Shown one piece after another: positions 50-15,190 of a DNA stretch of 40,732 nt. Numbering within the stretch: position 1 is the stretch's first letter; each line of letters starts with the position of its first letter. Source of the stretch: a virus. The DNA is taken from UHGV virus genome UHGV-0045958. One strand, given 5' to 3'. Below the pieces are notes generated by a model that was given only the letters and a program-made list of their open reading frames with translations, was not told the DNA's origin and made no database searches. The position numbers and the translations under genes are program-made.

Positions 50-1168
50 TCAAATAACCAACTTAACCCATTCCTGACCTCGAGTATCGTTATAGCGATC
101 GGTGGTTGCCTGGACTTTATGTCCTAGTAATGTTTTTGTATCGATACCCTGTGCACGGTACAGCCGTTCTGATAGAGAGCGTTGTTCATGAAATGTTGGC
201 GGAGTTTTTCCTGCTGGTGGAATTATCCCAGCCAGATCCCGTGCTTTGGCAAAGTAGTCGCTCAGGTTGTCTTTACTCATCGGCTTCGGTTGTTTCTGGT
301 GCCGACTATGGATTAGATATGGACTTAATATTCTGTCTCGGCACCCATCAATAACTTCTTTTAACGTTATCCCAATGGCATCACAGCGTAGTGTAAGCGG
401 TAACGCCAGACGCATTCCGGTTTTTCCCTGGGTGATATGCAAGTGTTCGTTCCACACATCTGAAAAACGCATGTGGCAAATGTCATCACGGCGCTGACCA
501 GTAACAATCGCAAGAAGCATTGCGTTACGGATAAAGTGTTTTTCAGGCGTTGCATTGTAAATTTTTTGCCAGTCTTCCATGGTGAGCCTGGCTCTGGTTA
601 CTTTAGGGATCGGTTTACGGGTAGCCTCCGGAGGATTCCATCCAGGAGGAACTTCCCCTGCATGCTGTGCTTCTTTATAAATATCAACCCATAATCCACG
701 ATTTACTCTCGCTGTGCTGACCATGTCTTTATCCAGCCACTCATCCAGTATTAATGCAAAGTCTCTTACTTCCAGTTCTTTCAATGGGTGGTTTCCCAGA
801 CGGGAAACCAGGTATGCAGCCATTCGAGTTTTTTCTTTGTGAGTTGTAGCTGCAATATCTCCATTTTTCAGTCGCGTGTCCTGTATTTTCAGATATCGAT
901 CAACCCATGCCTTTAATCTGATACCCCGACGTTTTGTTGCTGACAGACTTTCATCAATTTTGCGCATGAAATATTCAGCTTCTGCTGCAGCTATTCGCTG
1001 ATTGGCTGTGGAAGCGATTTTTTCTGCCTTACCTTTGTCTGTTCCGAGTCCGTGAAATTTTCCAGTCACAGGATTTTTATACTGGTAGTAAACTCTGCCA
1101 GTTCTGCGATCAAACTTTTCGTAAAGACCGGCTACGTCAGTGCTGTTTTTTCGTGGCCTCGGTGACAT
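50..1168 (-). CDS. int: phage integrase (tyrosine recombinase)
   Basis: 372-aa ORF at the prophage left end; C-terminal region looks like a tyrosine recombinase catalytic domain (HxxR...Y context, ...LGHKVQATTDRYND); start overlaps the xis candidate upstream. Confidence 0.88.
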   Translation of the reverse strand: MSPRPRKNSTDVAGLYEKFDRRTGRVYYQYKNPVTGKFHGLGTDKGKAEKIASTANQRIAAAEAEYFMRKIDESLSATKRRGIRLKAWVDRYLKIQDTRLKNGDIAATTHKEKTRMAAYLVSRLGNHPLKELEVRDFALILDEWLDKDMVSTARVNRGLWVDIYKEAQHAGEVPPGWNPPEATRKPIPKVTRARLTMEDWQKIYNATPEKHFIRNAMLLAIVTGQRRDDICHMRFSDVWNEHLHITQGKTGMRLALPLTLRCDAIGITLKEVIDGCRDRILSPYLIHSRHQKQPKPMSKDNLSDYFAKARDLAGIIPPAGKTPPTFHEQRSLSERLYRAQGIDTKTLLGHKVQATTDRYNDTRGQEWVKLVI

Positions 1169-1406
1169 GAGTTAAAATCTCCTTCAGTGCATCATCATCG
1201 CCAGTATGAATTTCCGGCGCAATTCCCGTTTCACCAGGCCCAACAAATACTGCTCGGCGATCTATCAGCCAACGCCCACGAATTTTTTGTGGCCTTGGAA
1301 CGATGTATCCTAGTTTTCCGTATTTCACCAGGGTAGTGTTTGTTATTGGGAGACTGAACCGTTTTGGTTTCCACTCGTCGAGCGTTATCAGGTACTGTTC
1401 GCTCAT
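1137..1406 (-). CDS. xis: excisionase-like protein
   Basis: Small ORF directly upstream of and overlapping int, in the canonical xis position; ATG at 1406 has a GGAG about 9 nt upstream, and GTG at 1415 is an alternative start. Identity is by position and size only. Confidence 0.6.
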   Translation of the reverse strand: MSEQYLITLDEWKPKRFSLPITNTTLVKYGKLGYIVPRPQKIRGRWLIDRRAVFVGPGETGIAPEIHTGDDDALKEILTHVTEATKKQH

Positions 1407-1467: not shown

Positions 1468-3909
1468 TTAAAAATCAGCCTGACTCGGGATCAGTTTTTG
1501 CCAGATAACTGAAACGTATTTTGCCTGGTAACGGGCGTCATCAAGTGCATTATGGCGCTCACCTTCGAATGGAATAGCCGTTCTGGCATCGAAGTCTATG
1601 GCTTTCCCCAGCTCAACGATTGTGCGTACATCGCGATCGTTGTAGTAACGCCACGGGCAGGGGATCCCCTGCCGTTCGTATGAACGGCGCAAAATCGTGT
1701 TGTCGAAGTTGGCTCCATTTCCCCAGACCTGAACAAAAAATTCACCGGAGTTTTCGTCGATAAATTCCCGCAATTGTAACAGTGCATCATCTAACGGGAT
1801 TTCATCGGTCATAATGGCAGATTGCGCTTCGCGTGATTGCTTAAGCCACCATTTAATGGTGTCCCGATCAATGACTCCGCCAGCAGTTTCCAGATCGATA
1901 GTCTTACTAAATTCCGGTCCCATATCTCCGGTTTGCGGATCGAAAAATATTGCACCTATTGAGATGATCGGGGCATCAGGATTTTTTCCCATGGTTTCAA
2001 GGTCGATCATTAGATGGTCACACGTCCTGCTGGTGGATGTGATTTCTTGATGACCGTTCACCTTAATTGAGTGATCTGCCGTCTCGCCAGTTTCATTATC
2101 GCTATCGTGATGCTGATTGCCGCCAGTGTTCTCCTTGTGTGGATGTTCAGCGCCTTCCATTTCCTCCGGATCATCTTCCTGAACTTCAACCTGATACTCT
2201 TCATCGAATGTTTCCTGGTATGTTGCGTCGCCCATCACCGCGCCACAATCAGGGCAGTTGCCGCCGCCGGTCTGACCGCAGGCGGTGCAGACTTTTTCCA
2301 CTTCCTGTTGCGCCACTGGTTCGGATTGTTTCGTTTCTGGCTCGTTTTGTAACGCATTTGGGCTGTTTTGTTCCGCTTTTTGGTCGTTCCGTTCCGATTC
2401 ATGCTGGTTCTGGTTCACAGAATCGCGAGTCTGGATCCCTTTGACCCATTTCGGATCATTAGGGTCGCTAATCCCCTCAACAAATTCACCACGCGATACA
2501 GCAAGTAACTTATCGGCGTCAGGCTGGCTGATATTGGCTGCCTGCATAATTTTGTTTACTTCGTCAGCGGTGACTTTTACTTGGTTAGCGGAACTCACCT
2601 GCGACTGAGCATCCAGCGACTGCGCGTTCTGGCCATGTTCAGTTGTATCCGGTTCCATTGTTTCAGTTGTTGCCTGTTCACCTGCCATTGCGTCAGATGG
2701 TTGTGGTTTTTCTTCTTCTGTTTCACGCTCAGTAACCACCTCGCGGTTAATTTCTTCCAGGATATCTTTTTCCGGCGTATGCCGGGCAGCTGTGAGAGTT
2801 TCCTTGCTGGGGTTCTCGTGATCAGTTTCCGTCAAATAGGCGTTGATATACCCCTGAAGGCGTCCCGGGTAGTGATAAAATTCAGGGTGTGCGCTTCGGA
2901 TAAGTGCAAAAATAGCGGCGCGGGAATAGTCCAGAATACCCGGGGTTGCACGAAGTGCTGCGGACCATTCTTTGAACGGACTTTCTTTGTTCAGGACTAC
3001 TTCTTTTGCGCGACGATAAACGCTGCCCGGAATTTCATAAATATTAAAATCCATCGGAAGTGTGGCTGCTGCAATCTCCACATCCAGTGTGTCGAGGGTG
3101 TGTACTAAATTCGGATTGCGATCGGTTTTGTTCCCACCGCCAGCATTAGCACCGGAAGCCGTGCGGGTGATGCGTGAAACACGATTTCCTTTCATCCACT
3201 CTTTTGTCAGCAGACCCCGATCAGTGTAGTCAGCGTCTAGGTATGCTTCGAAAAAAGCAGTTATTAGTCCCAGGTCTGAATTACCAGGATTAGGGAAAAC
3301 TTTGTCAGTGTCACGAACCAGTTTGTGGAGGTCGCGAATCTCCAGCGAGTCGAGCAGACTGGTTTTATGCGAAATAGCCAGGGCAGTAACAGCCGGTAGT
3401 TCTTCAGCCCGTGCAATGTGTAATGCCTGGAGTTCGTCGCGTGAAACGTGCGTTACTGGTTTTTCGCTGCCGTGTTGAGCAAGCCAACGAATGGGCAGTT
3501 CCTGACCGGAGACAGGCAGAAGCATGCTCTCCTCAATCTCAGTCATGGCTTCGCCGTTGATGTTGGTATTGTCAGTGCTGGCTGGTTTGTCCTGAACAGA
3601 GGGGGAAGGGCCGATAAATGTCATTGTGATGCCATCTTTCCCGCCTTTTTCATAGCGGTTGCAGAATTCAGTATCAAACACGCCTTCTGGCGGAAGGTCG
3701 TCAACAACGGGCAAATTGACGCGGACGGGTTTTTTAAAGTCGTCTTCATCATAATCGTTGTCATCCATTGCGGTAATGCAGCGGGAGATTGCAACAGATA
3801 ATTTTTTTGCTGTAGTCCAGTAAAAACCACCTTTAATTCCTAGGCGTTTTCTTACTTTGTCATTTTTTGCTTCGCAATATAGTGCAAATTCTTCTTTATC
3901 AGTGCTCAT
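1468..3909 (-). CDS. large exonuclease-family protein with C-terminal DnaQ-like (DEDDh) 3'-5' exonuclease domain
   Basis: 813-aa ORF; C-terminal ~180 aa carries DEDDh-type motifs ([11 protein letters not shown] ... [11 protein letters not shown]); central Glu/Gln/Ser-rich low-complexity linker with a CxxC-x9-CxxC zinc ribbon ([16 protein letters not shown]). Confidence 0.8.
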
Positions 3910-4002
3910 TATTGGTAAACCTCATCACAGATTTAAGGGTGAACAAATCTCTGCCATTGCTGACATATAAGAATGAAACTGGATATTTATTACGGTGCTG
4001 TT

Positions 4003-4194
4003 TTAAAATCCTGCCGGGATTTCGTTATTATCCTGGTGAATAACTTTATCGACCGGATAACAGTTGCCTGGAATTTTCTGTTCGGTTGCTGCTGCCATAC
4101 ATTCCTGCATTGTTCTGTGAACACTGACTGCAATATCAACTGGCTCTCCGGAAACAAGAAAAACCGTCAGAATAAGTGCAAATACTGGATTCAT
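4003..4194 (-). CDS. ydfD: YdfD-like small membrane (lysis) protein
   Basis: 63-aa product from the internal Met (MNPVFALILTVFLVSGEPVD...) with a hydrophobic N-terminus; its start overlaps the dicB stop (ATGA), as in the Qin dicB-ydfD arrangement. Confidence 0.6.
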   Translation of the reverse strand: MNPVFALILTVFLVSGEPVDIAVSVHRTMQECMAAATEQKIPGNCYPVDKVIHQDNNEIPAGF

Positions 4195-4379
4195 TGTGCA
4201 CATCCTTTTGGCATCAGACGTAAACGGGCCAGCATTGAAACAATGCATACTTTATTTAATAACTCCCGTTCGTGTTTTCTTTTGTTAATGGCATCTTCAG
4301 TAAATACAGGATTACTGATAGTGACACCAATTTCAAAACAACCTTCAGACGTATTAACGTTTGGTAATAACGTTTTCAT
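4191..4379 (-). CDS. dicB: DicB-like cell division inhibitor
   Basis: 62-aa product MKTLLPNVNTSEGCFEIGVTISNPVFTEDAINKRKHERELLNKVCIVSMLARLRLMPKGCAQ closely matches recalled Qin DicB; start taken at the internal Met of the 97-aa track ORF. Confidence 0.8.
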   Translation of the reverse strand: MKTLLPNVNTSEGCFEIGVTISNPVFTEDAINKRKHERELLNKVCIVSMLARLRLMPKGCAQ

Positions 4380-4548
4380 TATCGCGCCCTCAACAATGAG
4401 TTTTGTGATGCGGTGCCTGGTGCCTCCAGGTGACGTTAACCAGTTAACAATTAACGCCGGATACAGAGAATCCACCCATAACACTGTTTTTGGTTTTAAC
4501 TGTTCCGCGTGCGCTTAGCCGCATTCACCGCATCACAAAATTCACTTT

Positions 4549-4606
4549 AAAAAGGGCGGCAGAGCAGTCACGGAGTAAAACTGATACCGCCAAACGTCAC
4601 CAGAAA
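4549..4606 (-). ncRNA. dicF: DicF small RNA (ftsZ-targeting sRNA) with intrinsic terminator
   Basis: Minus-strand sequence 5'-TTTCTGGTGACGTTTGGCGGTATCAGTTTTACTCCGTGACTGCTCTGCCGCCCTTTTT-3' matches the recalled DicF sequence, ends in a GC stem plus U-tract, and lies immediately upstream of dicB. Confidence 0.8.
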
Positions 4607-4947
4607 ATTGATAACAGAGGGCGTTGCAGTGGGGTTGTCACTTAAGCGTATGGTCAACCTGACAACCCGGTGTCCTCAACGGGGGAAGGAATAACCCCGC
4701 CATACTTACCGCCGCGCCATTTCGCGGATTGCCACAACCGGAAGCGCACGGTCGACGAAAATTTAACGACAGGCTATCTATGAACCAGCTACCTCGCCGT
4801 GCGCTTTCGCGTTATGGTCTGACTTTTCAGGGAAATATCCTTTCAGTAAACTGTCAGTGCCGGATGCTCACCCGTGTCCGGCGCACGCACTCCACCTCAC
4901 CCGTGGAGAACTCCTTAATTACCAACCTTAGCTTCGTTGGTTATCTA

Positions 4948-5166
4948 TTAACGCGGGTATGTAATCATTCTGGCAATGCTTAATGCCGCTGCTTTTTCCA
5001 GCCTGGTGATATCCTGCTCCAGAGCGGACAGATTTTCAGCCTGCTTAGCCCTGGCTTCATTGGCCCATTTCAAATCCTGCGCTGCATTAATTTTCTGGCG
5101 CATCCACTCATAAAGTTCATCATCGGTATAGTCTGGCGCGATGATGACGGGTTCTCGTTTCTGCAT
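4948..5166 (-). CDS. YdfC-like hypothetical protein
   Basis: 72-aa ORF with a strong RBS (AAGGAG about 6 nt upstream of ATG at 5166), in the position of Qin ydfC upstream of dicF. Confidence 0.55.
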   Translation of the reverse strand: MQKREPVIIAPDYTDDELYEWMRQKINAAQDLKWANEARAKQAENLSALEQDITRLEKAAALSIARMITYPR

Positions 5167-5258
5167 GTCGGCTCCTTGTGGTTAGCGTTGCCTGCTTTTA
5201 ACCACGTCAGGCGAGGTGGTATCCTCTGAGGGGTCTGTTACTCGAGAGGAAATTGGTT

Positions 5259-5459
5259 ATGAATACAATCAAGTTTTCTTGCCCAGAATGTGGTGGCGAA
5301 GTCTTTGACACATCCTTTAAACCGCAGGGCTCTGACAGTTTCGCGGGAGCCATCTGCAAAAATTGTGGTCACCTTGTAACTGAAGATGAGTCCTCGCAGT
5401 TTGATGACGAAATCGTTGACAATATCTTCGGTGCACTCACCAGAGACTTTCTGAAGTAA
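5259..5459 (+). CDS. small zinc-ribbon protein (hypothetical)
   Basis: 66 aa with paired CPECGG ... CKNCGH motifs and an acidic C-terminus; GAGAGGA RBS about 9 nt upstream of ATG 5259. It lies antisense to an overlapping 118-aa minus-strand ORF (5238..5594), so the strand assignment is uncertain. Confidence 0.35.
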   Translation: MNTIKFSCPECGGEVFDTSFKPQGSDSFAGAICKNCGHLVTEDESSQFDDEIVDNIFGALTRDFLK

Positions 5460-5890
5460 AGGCGCATACCGCTTAGTTACCGCTCTGATAATTCTTACCT
5501 GTCCGGCAATGGCGCTGATATCAATATAAAGCGCCATCGCTGTTTCTTTGCTGATCCCTGGACGCCTTCCATTCTGATGTTTGACTTCGCCCACTGAGAA
5601 ATCCTCTGTTTCCCCTTAACGCCGGGGTAGCGGAACAAAAACCTGCTGCATAGTTATTAAAGTTGAACCCTGCCGTCATGTTCTTACGCCTCGGGCTGGC
5701 TACTTAACCCCTGACCACTGCCTGGTAACTCGAAGTATTGCCCTGCATTCTGTAGGATGGGGTGAGGGAATGAATGAAGTTTAGAAAAACGAACTTTTCA
5801 GGTCAATGTTTTTTTATCAAAACATTTTAAGCAGGCAGCTGTTAAGCCATCACCACGATGGCATACAGTTAATCAAATAGATGAGGTTGG

Positions 5891-10559: not shown

Positions 10560-10741
10560 TAGAATGACTGCGGGTGCTTGAGGCTATCTGTCTCAGGCAT
10601 GAACACCAAAAGGCAGATAGAGAAAAGCCCCAGTTAACATTACGCGTCCTGCAAGACGCTTAACATTAATCTGAGGCTCAATCTATGAACGGCAAATCTA
10701 GGTTAGCCTCTTACGTGCCGAAAGGCAAGGAGAAGCAGGCT
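10560..10741. promoter_or_regulatory. hok mRNA leader with in-frame mok-like upstream start (ATG 10685); expected location of an antisense Sok-like RNA
   Basis: Inferred from hok-family type I toxin-antitoxin organisation; the ORF from 10685 extends hok by 19 codons in frame; no Sok sequence was verified. Confidence 0.3.
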
Positions 10742-10897
10742 ATGAAGCAGCAAAAGGCGATGTTAATCGCCCTGATCGTCATCTGTTTAACCGTCATTGT
10801 GACGGCACTGGTAACGAGGAAAGACCTCTGCGAGGTACGAATCCGAACCGGCCAGACGGAGGTCGCTGTCTTCACAGCTTACGAACCTGAGGAGTAA
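10742..10897 (+). CDS. hokD: Hok/Gef-family type I toxin (HokD/RelF-like)
   Basis: 51-aa product MKQQKAMLIALIVICLTVIVTALVTRKDLCEVRIRTGQTEVAVFTAYEPEE matches recalled HokD (RelF); AAGGAG RBS upstream. Confidence 0.8.
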   Translation: MKQQKAMLIALIVICLTVIVTALVTRKDLCEVRIRTGQTEVAVFTAYEPEE

Positions 10898-13745: not shown

Positions 13746-13821
13746 GGCCCTTTAGCTCAGTGGTGAGAGCGAGCGACTCATAATCGCCAGGTCGCTGGTT
13801 CAAATCCAGCAAGGGCCACCA
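13746..13821 (+). tRNA. ileZ: tRNA-Ile2 (CAU anticodon; ileX/ileZ-like), possibly tRNA-Met
   Basis: 76-nt cloverleaf GGCCCUU..AGCUCAGUGGUGAGAGC..CUCAUAA..GGUCGCUGGUUCAAAUCCAGCAAGGGCCACCA with encoded CCA; very similar to recalled E. coli ileX. Confidence 0.8.
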
Positions 13822-14163: not shown

Positions 14164-14364
14164 ATTGTCTGGCTGCCGGAGAATTTGTTAAAAATTACAT
14201 CGCATGGTGAATCCCCCTCAGCGGCGGGGCATCTGGCAAAGTGTATGATCCAGAGAACATGCAAATTCAGTAGACAGGCTGAATTTACCGGGAGGCCCCT
14301 GGCACCATGCGACAGACAGAAATTAGGCTATACTTCAGCCCCTCTCCGGAGGGGCTTTTCTGTG
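14164..14364 (+). repeat. structured terminator-capped element, copy A (candidate sRNA or late-leader element)
   Basis: Shares with copy B a promoter-like 5' block, the gcatggtg/caccatgc long-range complement, a ccgggaggc block and an identical AGCCCCTC-tccg-GAGGGGCT terminator followed by a T-tract. Confidence 0.5.
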
Positions 14365-14632
14365 CAGGATGTGTCACAGTTTCCTGAATTCTGAGTACTG
14401 TCCTGTTACTCAGGGTGCTATATTTTCTGACGTGATGAAAGTCTGCCGGAAGGCGGAACGTATCGGAAATGACCCAGTAGAGAAAACGTTGACTCAGATA
14501 CCGATGCTGAGTTACCGGGAAACCGGCATCACATGACCGCTATCCTTCCAGGCTCGCTCCGGCGGGCCTTTTTACTGCAGAAAACAGTTTTCCCGTAAAA
14601 TGCCACGTTGCTCATAATTCAGGCTGGCGATT

Positions 14633-14830
14633 ATTGTCTGGCCGGCGGGAAGTTTGTTAAAAAATTTCGCATGGTGAATCCCCCTGTGCGGAGGGGTAAT
14701 CAGCGAGTAGGTATATGGGATAATCGCGGATTCAGGTGCTGGTACTGAATTCACCGGGAGGCACCCGGCACCATGCAATGGCACATAGCGCCACTCTCCA
14801 GCCCCTCTCCGGAGGGGCTGTTTATATTGA
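14633..14830 (+). repeat. structured terminator-capped element, copy B
   Basis: Imperfect duplicate of copy A with the same terminal hairpin (14800-14819). Confidence 0.5.
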
Positions 14831-14854: not shown

Positions 14855-15190
14855 TTATGGACTTTGTTGTTTTAGTCCATAAGGACATATTTGCAGAATG
14901 CAACGGTTATTAAAGCATTCATTCAATACGTTATCTGTATTTGTAGGGCATTCCTGGCTGTTTTTGATTAAATTCCAGAATGTTTTATTGAATGGTACTA
15001 CGTTGTAAATGGTTACAGGTAGCACTTTGTTATTGAGCATGATACCTGTGTGAGTCAGTGTAAATATACTTTCAGGAGGTAAGAAAGCATCCGATTGATA
15101 CCAGATTATTAATTTTACTTTACTCCATATGACTGAAAAAGATATTCCGCATGATGGCTGGATAACTGTATCAATTACAATCCACTTCAT
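14855..15190 (-). CDS. hypothetical protein (AT-rich moron, 111 aa)
   Basis: Reverse-strand ORF in a markedly AT-rich island; AAGGAAG RBS 5 nt upstream of ATG; 11-bp inverted repeat ccttatggact/agtccataagg (14853-14884) at its 3' end. Confidence 0.5.

Follow-up and report, generated by a model that had tools for sequence, protein, structure and literature searches.

Virus genome UHGV-0045958, a stretch of 40,732 nucleotides that was analysed over its whole length (hereafter the window), is a Qin-like lambdoid prophage inserted beside potC, and it carries on its minus strand an open reading frame (ORF) of 813 amino acids (aa) at 1468-3909. By its sequence, this gene is a RecE-family mosaic in which the N-terminal module of RecE was kept and the 5'-3' PD-(D/E)XK nuclease was replaced by a complete DEDDh exonuclease. 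RecE and RecT are the workhorse of recombineering, and it is the nuclease domain of RecE that makes the 3' tails and docks RecT. The 813-aa protein is neither an ExoVIII equivalog nor a SynExo recombinase. We are highly confident of this architecture taken together with a rule that came out of the related loci, namely that the gene downstream goes with the type of the C-terminal nuclease. The best explanation overall is a RecE-N::DEDDh mosaic that would work as a partner-independent, tethered 3'-end exonuclease and not as a two-component recombinase, and to this complete account we give about an even chance.

RecE-derived module, tether and nuclease domain

The reading frame at 1468-3909 was uninterrupted over its 813 codons (ORF list). 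Residues 58-615 of the product aligned with residues 50-591 of Rac RecE (from K-12) at 59% identity over 558 residues (BLASTP), and the Pfam family Exonuc_VIII (PF06630) matched residues 57-189 with E=1.5e-35 (3343-3741, on the minus strand like all parts of the gene). The initial annotation had described an exonuclease fusion and had left the first 400 or so residues unassigned. According to the PF06630 match and the 59% identity, however, these residues are the N-terminal region of RecE, and the protein is a RecE with a swapped nuclease rather than an exonuclease with a novel N-terminus. The N-terminal part thus matches a region of a known recombination protein, but no function, annealing or recombination activity is known for that domain of RecE (PMC11611040). 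Since the alignment runs to residue 615, the acidic linker and its Cys motif, like the folded N-terminal domain, are inherited RecE sequence and not a new fusion joint.

The borders of the mosaic were also visible at the DNA level. Rac recE matched the window at 3118-3571 (92% identity) and 2073-2718 (75%), and the homology stopped at 2073. The NCBIfam exoVIII equivalog NF007259 was matched only over its positions 1-602 of 877 (944 bits against a cut-off of 1269), and nothing resembling the RecE PD-(D/E)XK nuclease (RecE about 600-866) was found in the window by tblastn or BLASTP, with the alignments ending at RecE 591. The joint falls at the start of the RecE nuclease domain, and it is this domain alone that has been exchanged. 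Upstream of the gene, window positions 3918-5166 were 96% identical to the ydfD-dicB-dicF-ydfC stretch of K-12 Qin (3824-5071 of the compared Qin locus), and this match ended 9 bases before the start codon (3909).

The C-terminus (residues 629-813 plus the stop codon, 1468-2025) is an intact DEDDh domain of the DexA/Rv2179c type and a predicted 3'-5' exonuclease. Pfam PF16473 (Rv2179c-like) matched residues 632-803 with E=1.2e-67 and 227 bits against a cut-off of 27. In an alignment of six sequences (the window protein, T4 DexA, the stand-alone exonuclease of the lambdoid phage mEp235 and three diverged fusions), the catalytic residues D636, E638, D736, H786 and D791 fell on D7, E9, D119, H186 and D191 of T4 DexA and were invariant in all six; the motifs Exo I (DxE), Exo II (D) and Exo III (H-x4-D) were all present and were conserved across the fusion family. 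T4 DexA (8KEL) was also the best Foldseek match of the full-length model (E=3e-7, probability 1.0), further top matches being RNase T, oligoribonuclease (Orn) and DnaQ domains, all with probability 1.0. The only solved proteins found by sequence were 8KEL and 8KEN, both T4 DexA, which is a 3'-5' DNA exonuclease (T4 annotation; PMC12153337). Residues 1-180 of the mEp235 exonuclease (182 aa) aligned to window positions 2022-1492 at 58% identity (tblastn), and the DEDDh part is in this alignment the equivalent of an entire stand-alone phage exonuclease gene. The 813-aa exonuclease ORF of the initial annotation and the DEDDh domain placed at its C-terminus were therefore both confirmed, the latter by the Pfam match, the catalytic residues and the Foldseek match.

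The folded N-terminal module, the homologue of the RecE N-terminal domain, covers residues 1-398 (2716-3909). Since a homologue search with residues 1-450 brought up nothing but near-identical E. coli fragments, a library clustered at 50% identity was used instead. With an 88-sequence alignment as input, AlphaFold2 modelled residues 1-398 at a mean predicted local distance difference test score (pLDDT) of 90.5, as a small alpha/beta unit, a few strands and two helical sub-domains, with a loop at 103-111 that is disordered. The helical core at residues 261-395 (2725-3129) is common to the YdfE family. This fold had no solved structural relative, gave no Foldseek match at E<=0.001 among predicted viral structures, and showed no structural match to the Rad52, Red-beta, RecT, Erf or Gp2.5 folds. 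Its isoelectric point (pI) was 5.15 and its net charge -17, the same region of Rac RecE being likewise acidic, and this acidity argues against a DNA-annealing role and would be in favour of protein binding.

Residues 399-628 (2026-2715) make up the tether, a RecE-derived, acidic stretch rich in Q, N, S and T that is predicted to be disordered. Its pI was 4.26, its net charge -33, and pLDDT stayed below 50 through nearly all of 400-625. The long acidic linker that the initial annotation had described is therefore real, but the zinc ribbon placed in it is suggested by a motif only, in what would be an optional insert. The CxxC-x8-CxxC motif (residues 541-556, 2242-2289), a possible zinc knuckle, is present in Rac RecE, but it was modelled at a pLDDT of about 57 without strands, and only 6 of the 84 family representatives with 450 aa or more had it, in both nuclease classes.

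Partner genes and the exchange of nuclease cassettes

No bet-, recT- or erf-like gene had been seen between xis and dicB in the initial annotation, and this held for the whole window. The exonuclease gene does lie between xis and ydfD/dicB, as had been stated; there was no gene between it and xis, and only ydfD stood between it and dicB (ORF list; RefSeq annotation of a relative). The tblastn searches of the whole window with lambda Bet, Rac RecT, a Gifsy-type RecT, mEp235 Erf, SSB and Abc2, lambda Exo and lambda Gam gave no match below E 0.1, the best value for the two RecT proteins being 0.23. When ten early-region ORFs were scanned against Pfam and PHROGs, a replication initiator, DUF977/Ren-like, DUF968/HNH, a CII-like activator and small unknowns came up and no single-strand annealing protein (SSAP), with Sak, Sak4 and Gp2.5 covered by these hidden Markov model scans only. 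No annealing protein is listed in the early-region RefSeq/GenBank annotation of two records with a 100% identical exonuclease gene. Furthermore, a 5'-3' dsDNA exonuclease of the lambda Exo/RecE/YqaJ type gave no match in the window when lambda Exo and the RecE nuclease domain were used in tblastn.

We compared this with other loci of the family. No partner accompanied the DEDDh type in 7/7 loci, which were the window, three diverged enterobacterial prophages (L008, L010 and L011, with 44%, 36% and 33% identity) and three E. coli prophages at other attachment sites (L018, L019 and L020); the gene was followed directly by xis or DUF4224 and then by int, with no SSAP between repressor and int. 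The PD-(D/E)XK type was followed by RecT in 3/3 loci (Rac, Salmonella phage FSL SP-016 and a 33%-identical relative). Genes with a third C-terminus, the 'exonuclease' family phrog_7838, were followed by Sipho_Gp157 in 2/2 loci with overlapping stop and start codons (L012 7001-9921, L023 5001-7996), and the phrog_7838 domain and Gp157 may be a nuclease-partner pair. The downstream partner gene thus travelled with the C-terminal nuclease cassette, which is shown as a correlation. Because the partner tracks the cassette that was replaced, the absence of Bet, RecT and Erf is expected and not anomalous. Annealases load on 3' tails that a 5'-3' exonuclease has produced, and the nuclease domain of RecE is the part with which RecT interacts. 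The absence of a partner also makes mechanistic sense, because on this established knowledge the RecT-interacting 5'-3' nuclease domain is gone.

Two further observations concern these loci. A small gene (108-116 aa) with a Pfam match to the Rrf2 family was located directly upstream of RecE-N::DEDDh in the three diverged prophages (L008 7522-7860, L010 476-826, L011 6533-6859), where the window has ydfD/dicB. The idea that stand-alone DEDDh homologues always stand beside an annealase was rejected: it was true in mEp235 (Erf-SSB-exonuclease-Abc2), but in Morganella IME1369_02, Aeromonas phiARM81ld and Bas95 no annealase was annotated near the stand-alone DEDDh gene, many of the neighbours being hypothetical.

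When residues 1-400 were searched against 1.84 billion cluster representatives, only 213 clusters were found, so this is a small, mostly enterobacterial phage family. The C-termini were typed locally for the 84 representatives of at least 450 aa among those listed, the clusters being formed at 50% identity. About 20 of them had the RecE PD-(D/E)XK nuclease, and about 14, which are 30-72% identical to the window protein, combined RecE-N with DEDDh. A third set had only the core 261-395 in common and was composed of YdfE_N and YdfE_C according to precomputed Pfam matches. The phrog_7838 C-terminus was found in nine representatives (seven of the third set and two with an Exonuc_VIII-type N-terminus). 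This domain had no local Pfam match, no PDB sequence match and no solved relative, and no signal came from its profile-profile comparison with the RecE nuclease or with lambda Exo, in which the control pair, RecE and lambda Exo, failed as well.

In E. coli, 1245 of 5426 complete genomes had a copy covering at least 80% of the gene, and in genomes with any match the RecE-related places numbered 2 as a median and 9 at most. Among the matches sampled, many other genomes carried the linker and DEDDh half (about 98% identical) on another N-terminus. For example, in a strain of sequence type (ST) 131 the N-terminus was only 20% identical and of the YdfE_N type, whilst linker and DEDDh were 99% identical. 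The corresponding slot of K-12 Qin holds ydfE, an IS2-truncated pseudogene, in place of the exonuclease gene. It is a remnant of the same gene family, because full-length relatives share the helical core 261-395 with RecE. K-12 YdfE itself was rejected as a homologue of the N-terminus, since BLASTP found no similarity to the 306-aa K-12 fragment and the relation goes only via the YdfE_C core of the full-length relatives.

The ratio of nonsynonymous to synonymous substitutions (dN/dS) was computed pairwise between the window gene and two copies of about 91% identity. It was 0.10-0.12 for the N-module at a dS of 0.31-0.34 and 0.35-0.41 (relaxed) for the tether, and the DEDDh parts were almost identical across these pairs (dS 0.017). 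As read from these sequences, the divergence pattern across N-module, tether and DEDDh is that of cassette exchange, and the value of about 0.1 indicates that selection maintains the N-module while it is joined to DEDDh. Strong purifying selection despite a swapped nuclease of opposite polarity and the loss of RecT argues that the N-terminal region has a function of its own, independent of 5'-3' resection or RecT.

The RecE-N::DEDDh architecture is common and already present in databases. PF06630 and PF16473 are paired in precomputed Pfam matches, and PHROGs holds it in phrog_607, phrog_2082 and phrog_20376. In RefSeq it is labelled 'exonuclease', 'RecE family exodeoxyribonuclease' or '3'-5' exoribonuclease'. 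The domain swap and the cassette rule, in contrast, are undescribed in the literature that we found: no paper describing either came up, and literature searches on PF16473, DUF5051, PF06630, Rv2179c and YdfE turned up nothing on the architecture. Our results correct a widespread annotation habit, that of calling such proteins 'exodeoxyribonuclease VIII', 'RecE family' or '3'-5' exoribonuclease'. Prophages with such genes have sometimes been scored as having, or having lost, a RecET-type recombination system. For example, a study of O157 prophages grouped such genes as a mostly non-intact 'Exo VIII-type' recombination system (PMC2669165).

The gene has modest practical importance: it is found very commonly in E. 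coli, also in ST131 and enterohaemorrhagic lineages, and no phenotype is attached to it. We have described a variant of a known family, and it is of value mainly as an experiment of nature on the N-terminal region of RecE, which is still unexplained. Two-thirds of RecE are without known function, and the chimeras are natural 'domain-swap mutants' in which that region could be tested.

Proposed mode of action and competing explanations

After prophage induction, the gene would be expressed from the early-left operon, at the distal end of which it is located. Its product would act as a single polypeptide, independent of any partner, and would trim or degrade DNA 3' ends. Rather than binding DNA, the acidic N-module probably serves as a targeting domain that binds protein, and together with the long flexible leash it would hold the nuclease at the same cellular site as RecE. 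Such a protein would not be a two-component exonuclease/annealase recombinase. This mechanistic part, a tethered 3'-end exonuclease acting alone, is put forward tentatively, and we consider it somewhat more likely to fail than to hold.

Several points weigh against this reading. The activity of the fusion is predicted, from sequence and model. The substrate could be RNA, which is conceivable because the Pfam family was named after the exoribonuclease Rv2179c. The targeting role is drawn from charge, tether and modularity, and the function of RecE's own N-module is unknown (PMC11611040). Expression from the leftward operon is deduced from gene order only, as a promoter and terminator scan around the gene did no better than chance, with counts equal to the shuffled expectation. 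Finally, the cassette rule comes from small samples (7, 3 and 2 loci), in which several DEDDh loci belong to Qin-like prophages that are related to one another.

A wider proposal goes beyond this single protein. The RecE N-module, that is the acidic fold of unclassified type with its tether, could be an autonomous, nuclease-agnostic device for delivery or host interaction into which lambdoid phages have plugged at least three unrelated nuclease cassettes (PD-(D/E)XK with RecT, the phrog_7838 type with Gp157, and DEDDh alone). In that case the DEDDh version would define an annealase-independent phage pathway of 3'-end processing, which might for example blunt host RecBCD/RecA processing or destroy competitor DNA, and there would be a clean handle on the role of the first 600 residues of RecE. 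We regard this proposal as speculative and its truth as doubtful.

Among the competing explanations, the one that survives best keeps the protein in recombination, with the annealing or strand-exchange proteins supplied in trans by the host (RecA/RecFOR) or by a co-resident prophage (RecT or Bet), while the exonuclease trims flaps or 3' tails. The gene occupies the exact recE-recT slot before xis-int, its closest stand-alone homologue (mEp235, 58%) is inside an Erf-SSB-exonuclease-Abc2 module, T4 DexA takes part in intron homing, and the multiple RecE-related places counted above (median 2, up to 9) could provide co-resident partners. Moreover, O157 prophages with ExoVIII-type proteins were read as having a recombination system (PMC2669165). 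However, a 3'-5' exonuclease destroys the very 3' tails that annealases use, the nuclease domain to which RecT would dock is gone (by prior knowledge of the RecE-RecT interaction), and stand-alone homologues also occur far from any annealase. We consider it unlikely.

The protein might alternatively be a prophage defence nuclease of the HREX kind, with a DEDDh domain that selectively degrades the 5-hydroxymethylcytosine (5hmC)-type DNA of superinfecting T-even phages and so protects the lysogen. Its precedent is EcD, an E. coli DexA homologue that was able to digest T4 DNA in vitro and, expressed from a plasmid, gave cells protection from T4 (Kang et al., NAR 2025, PMC12153337). The window domain is also a DexA homologue, and prophages often carry defence genes. 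However, EcD is a different protein, its primers encoding a MIDTET... start and a ...TIPETYD end. Searched by primer sequence, the EcD gene had no exact match in viral or genome collections and is probably synthetic or strain-specific. The residues proposed for 5hmC recognition are not kept in the 813-aa protein, where Y756 stands for DexA W152 and A770 for D169. The loss of D90, a tetramer-forming residue of DexA, is said to confer specificity; D90 aligns with D708 (and S87 with P705) and would thus be kept, although a shift by one column would put A709 at D90. Furthermore, PADLOC returned no match for the fusion, the gene stands last in the lytic early-left operon and showed no separate promoter signal, and the RecE N-module would be left unexplained. 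A defence role is in our view unlikely.

An exoribonuclease acting on 3' ends of host or phage RNA, and not on DNA, is suggested by the name of the Pfam family, given for the M. tuberculosis 3'-5' exoribonuclease Rv2179c, and by RNase T and oligoribonuclease as close structural neighbours. Nevertheless, sequence and fold both point to the DNA exonuclease DexA as the closest solved relative, and the genomic slot and the fusion partner belong to functions of DNA metabolism, which makes this explanation quite improbable.

The initial annotation had suggested that the N-terminal part may provide a different function, and it implied that this might be annealing. The first part of the suggestion stood, in that the module does something other than nuclease chemistry, but there was no sign that it replaces an annealing protein. 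In favour of a new kind of SSAP in the N-module, full-length RecE and not the nuclease domain alone boosts linear-linear recombination, as cited in PMC11611040, and the module is strongly conserved with an unclassified fold. Against it stand the acidity of the module (pI and net charge given above), the lack of similarity to the Rad52, Red-beta, RecT, Erf and Gp2.5 folds, and the fact that genomes in which the module is joined to the RecE nuclease still always carry RecT (3/3 loci). Annealing by the N-module is very improbable on this evidence. A non-functional relic, left when illegitimate recombination deleted the 3' end of recE together with recT in a decaying prophage, is largely refuted and hardly credible, since although E. 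coli lambdoid prophages are often defective and ExoVIII-type systems were counted as mostly not intact in O157 (PMC2669165), the frame is intact over 813 codons with all catalytic residues conserved, the N-module dN/dS is about 0.1, and the architecture recurs, both in about 14 clusters below 50% identity and in further enterobacterial prophages whose integrases and insertion sites differ.

Gene neighbourhood and comparison with known systems

Gene names and coordinates around the exonuclease gene were carried over by offset from a RefSeq E. coli chromosome with a 100% identical exonuclease gene. Directly downstream is the excisionase gene xis (1137-1406, minus strand), followed by the integrase gene (50-1168, minus strand), where the prophage adjoins potC (ORF list; RefSeq annotation). 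Upstream and in the same leftward operon are ydfD (DUF1482; 4003-4194, minus strand), which is immediately adjacent, and dicB (4191-4379, minus strand). They are preceded by the small RNA (sRNA) DicF, a marker of Qin-type dicB operons (4554-4605, minus strand; Rfam RF00039, 76.7 bits), and by ydfC (4948-5166; RefSeq annotation of a relative). The other content of the window includes a cI/cro/YdaT-type immunity region, a replication initiator, DUF968/HNH, RusA, Q, and lysis and structural genes.

The exonuclease gene was 100% identical in many E. coli chromosomes, where its label is 'exonuclease', and also in the phage record ON470612, where it is labelled 'exodeoxyribonuclease VIII'. In this record ('Escherichia phage vB_EcoS-640R1, partial genome') the prophage early region is contiguous with more than 13 kb of host chromosome including potC, potD, cobB, nagK, lolCDE, ycfT and mfd. 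Hence either a prophage region was submitted as a phage, or host DNA from the flank had been packaged (lateral transduction).

Some other loci of the window were observed in passing. Between ydfC and the repressor, two candidate ORFs overlap on opposite strands (5238-5594, minus; 5253-5459, plus); one (118 aa) belongs to PHROG 21318 (unknown function), and the other (68 aa, two CxxC motifs) is at the position of the RefSeq 'ECs_2282 family putative zinc-binding protein'. A hok/sok-type toxin-antitoxin locus is present in the nin-like region (10572-10897, plus strand; Rfam sok match, 112 bits), where the sok match overlaps a 70-aa ORF (10685-10897) which related records label hokD or 'host killer protein'. 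A tRNA with anticodon CAT (13746-13821, plus strand) is tRNA-Met according to ARAGORN and the phage record, and the equivalent tRNA downstream of Q in the RefSeq chromosome is annotated as tRNA-Ile, a label that would fit a lysidine-modified tRNA of the Ile2 type. Downstream of Q and the tRNA there are two copies of the STnc100 sRNA family (14172-14365 and 14641-14829, plus strand; 138 and 132 bits) about 470 bases apart, and an ORF on the opposite strand (14855-15190) matches iraM (anti-adaptor) of related records in position and length.

Compared with known systems, the 813-aa gene is in the same neighbourhood, and presumably has the same expression timing in a lambdoid phage, as lambda Red (Exo/Bet/Gam) and other SynExo recombinases; it differs from them in that the window is without a 5'-3' exonuclease, an annealase and Gam. 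EcD/HREX is likewise a DexA homologue of the DEDDh class, but it is a stand-alone protein, and the anti-T4 phenotype is that of EcD, no defence phenotype being known for the fusion. The YdfE family occupies the identical slot after ydfD in Qin-like prophages and has the helical core 261-395 (Pfam YdfE_C) in common with the 813-aa protein, and some YdfE_N-type proteins bear the very same linker and DEDDh domain. It differs in the first 220-250 or so residues, which are of the YdfE_N type, and many of its members end in the phrog_7838 domain and are followed by Gp157.

Like the 813-aa protein, Rac RecE has the folded N-terminal domain, the acidic tether and the CxxC-x8-CxxC motif, and its gene is in the same leftward-operon slot before xis-int. 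However, RecE ends in a PD-(D/E)XK 5'-3' nuclease and has recT adjacent, whereas the 813-aa protein is without both and carries a nuclease of another fold and of opposite predicted polarity. With T4 DexA and the stand-alone phage exonucleases such as that of mEp235, it has the DEDDh fold in common and keeps the five catalytic residues, although the insertions of DexA are absent and W152 and D169 of DexA are Y and A here. The stand-alone DEDDh proteins are free and of about 180-230 aa, whereas here the same domain is tethered to a 628-aa RecE module.

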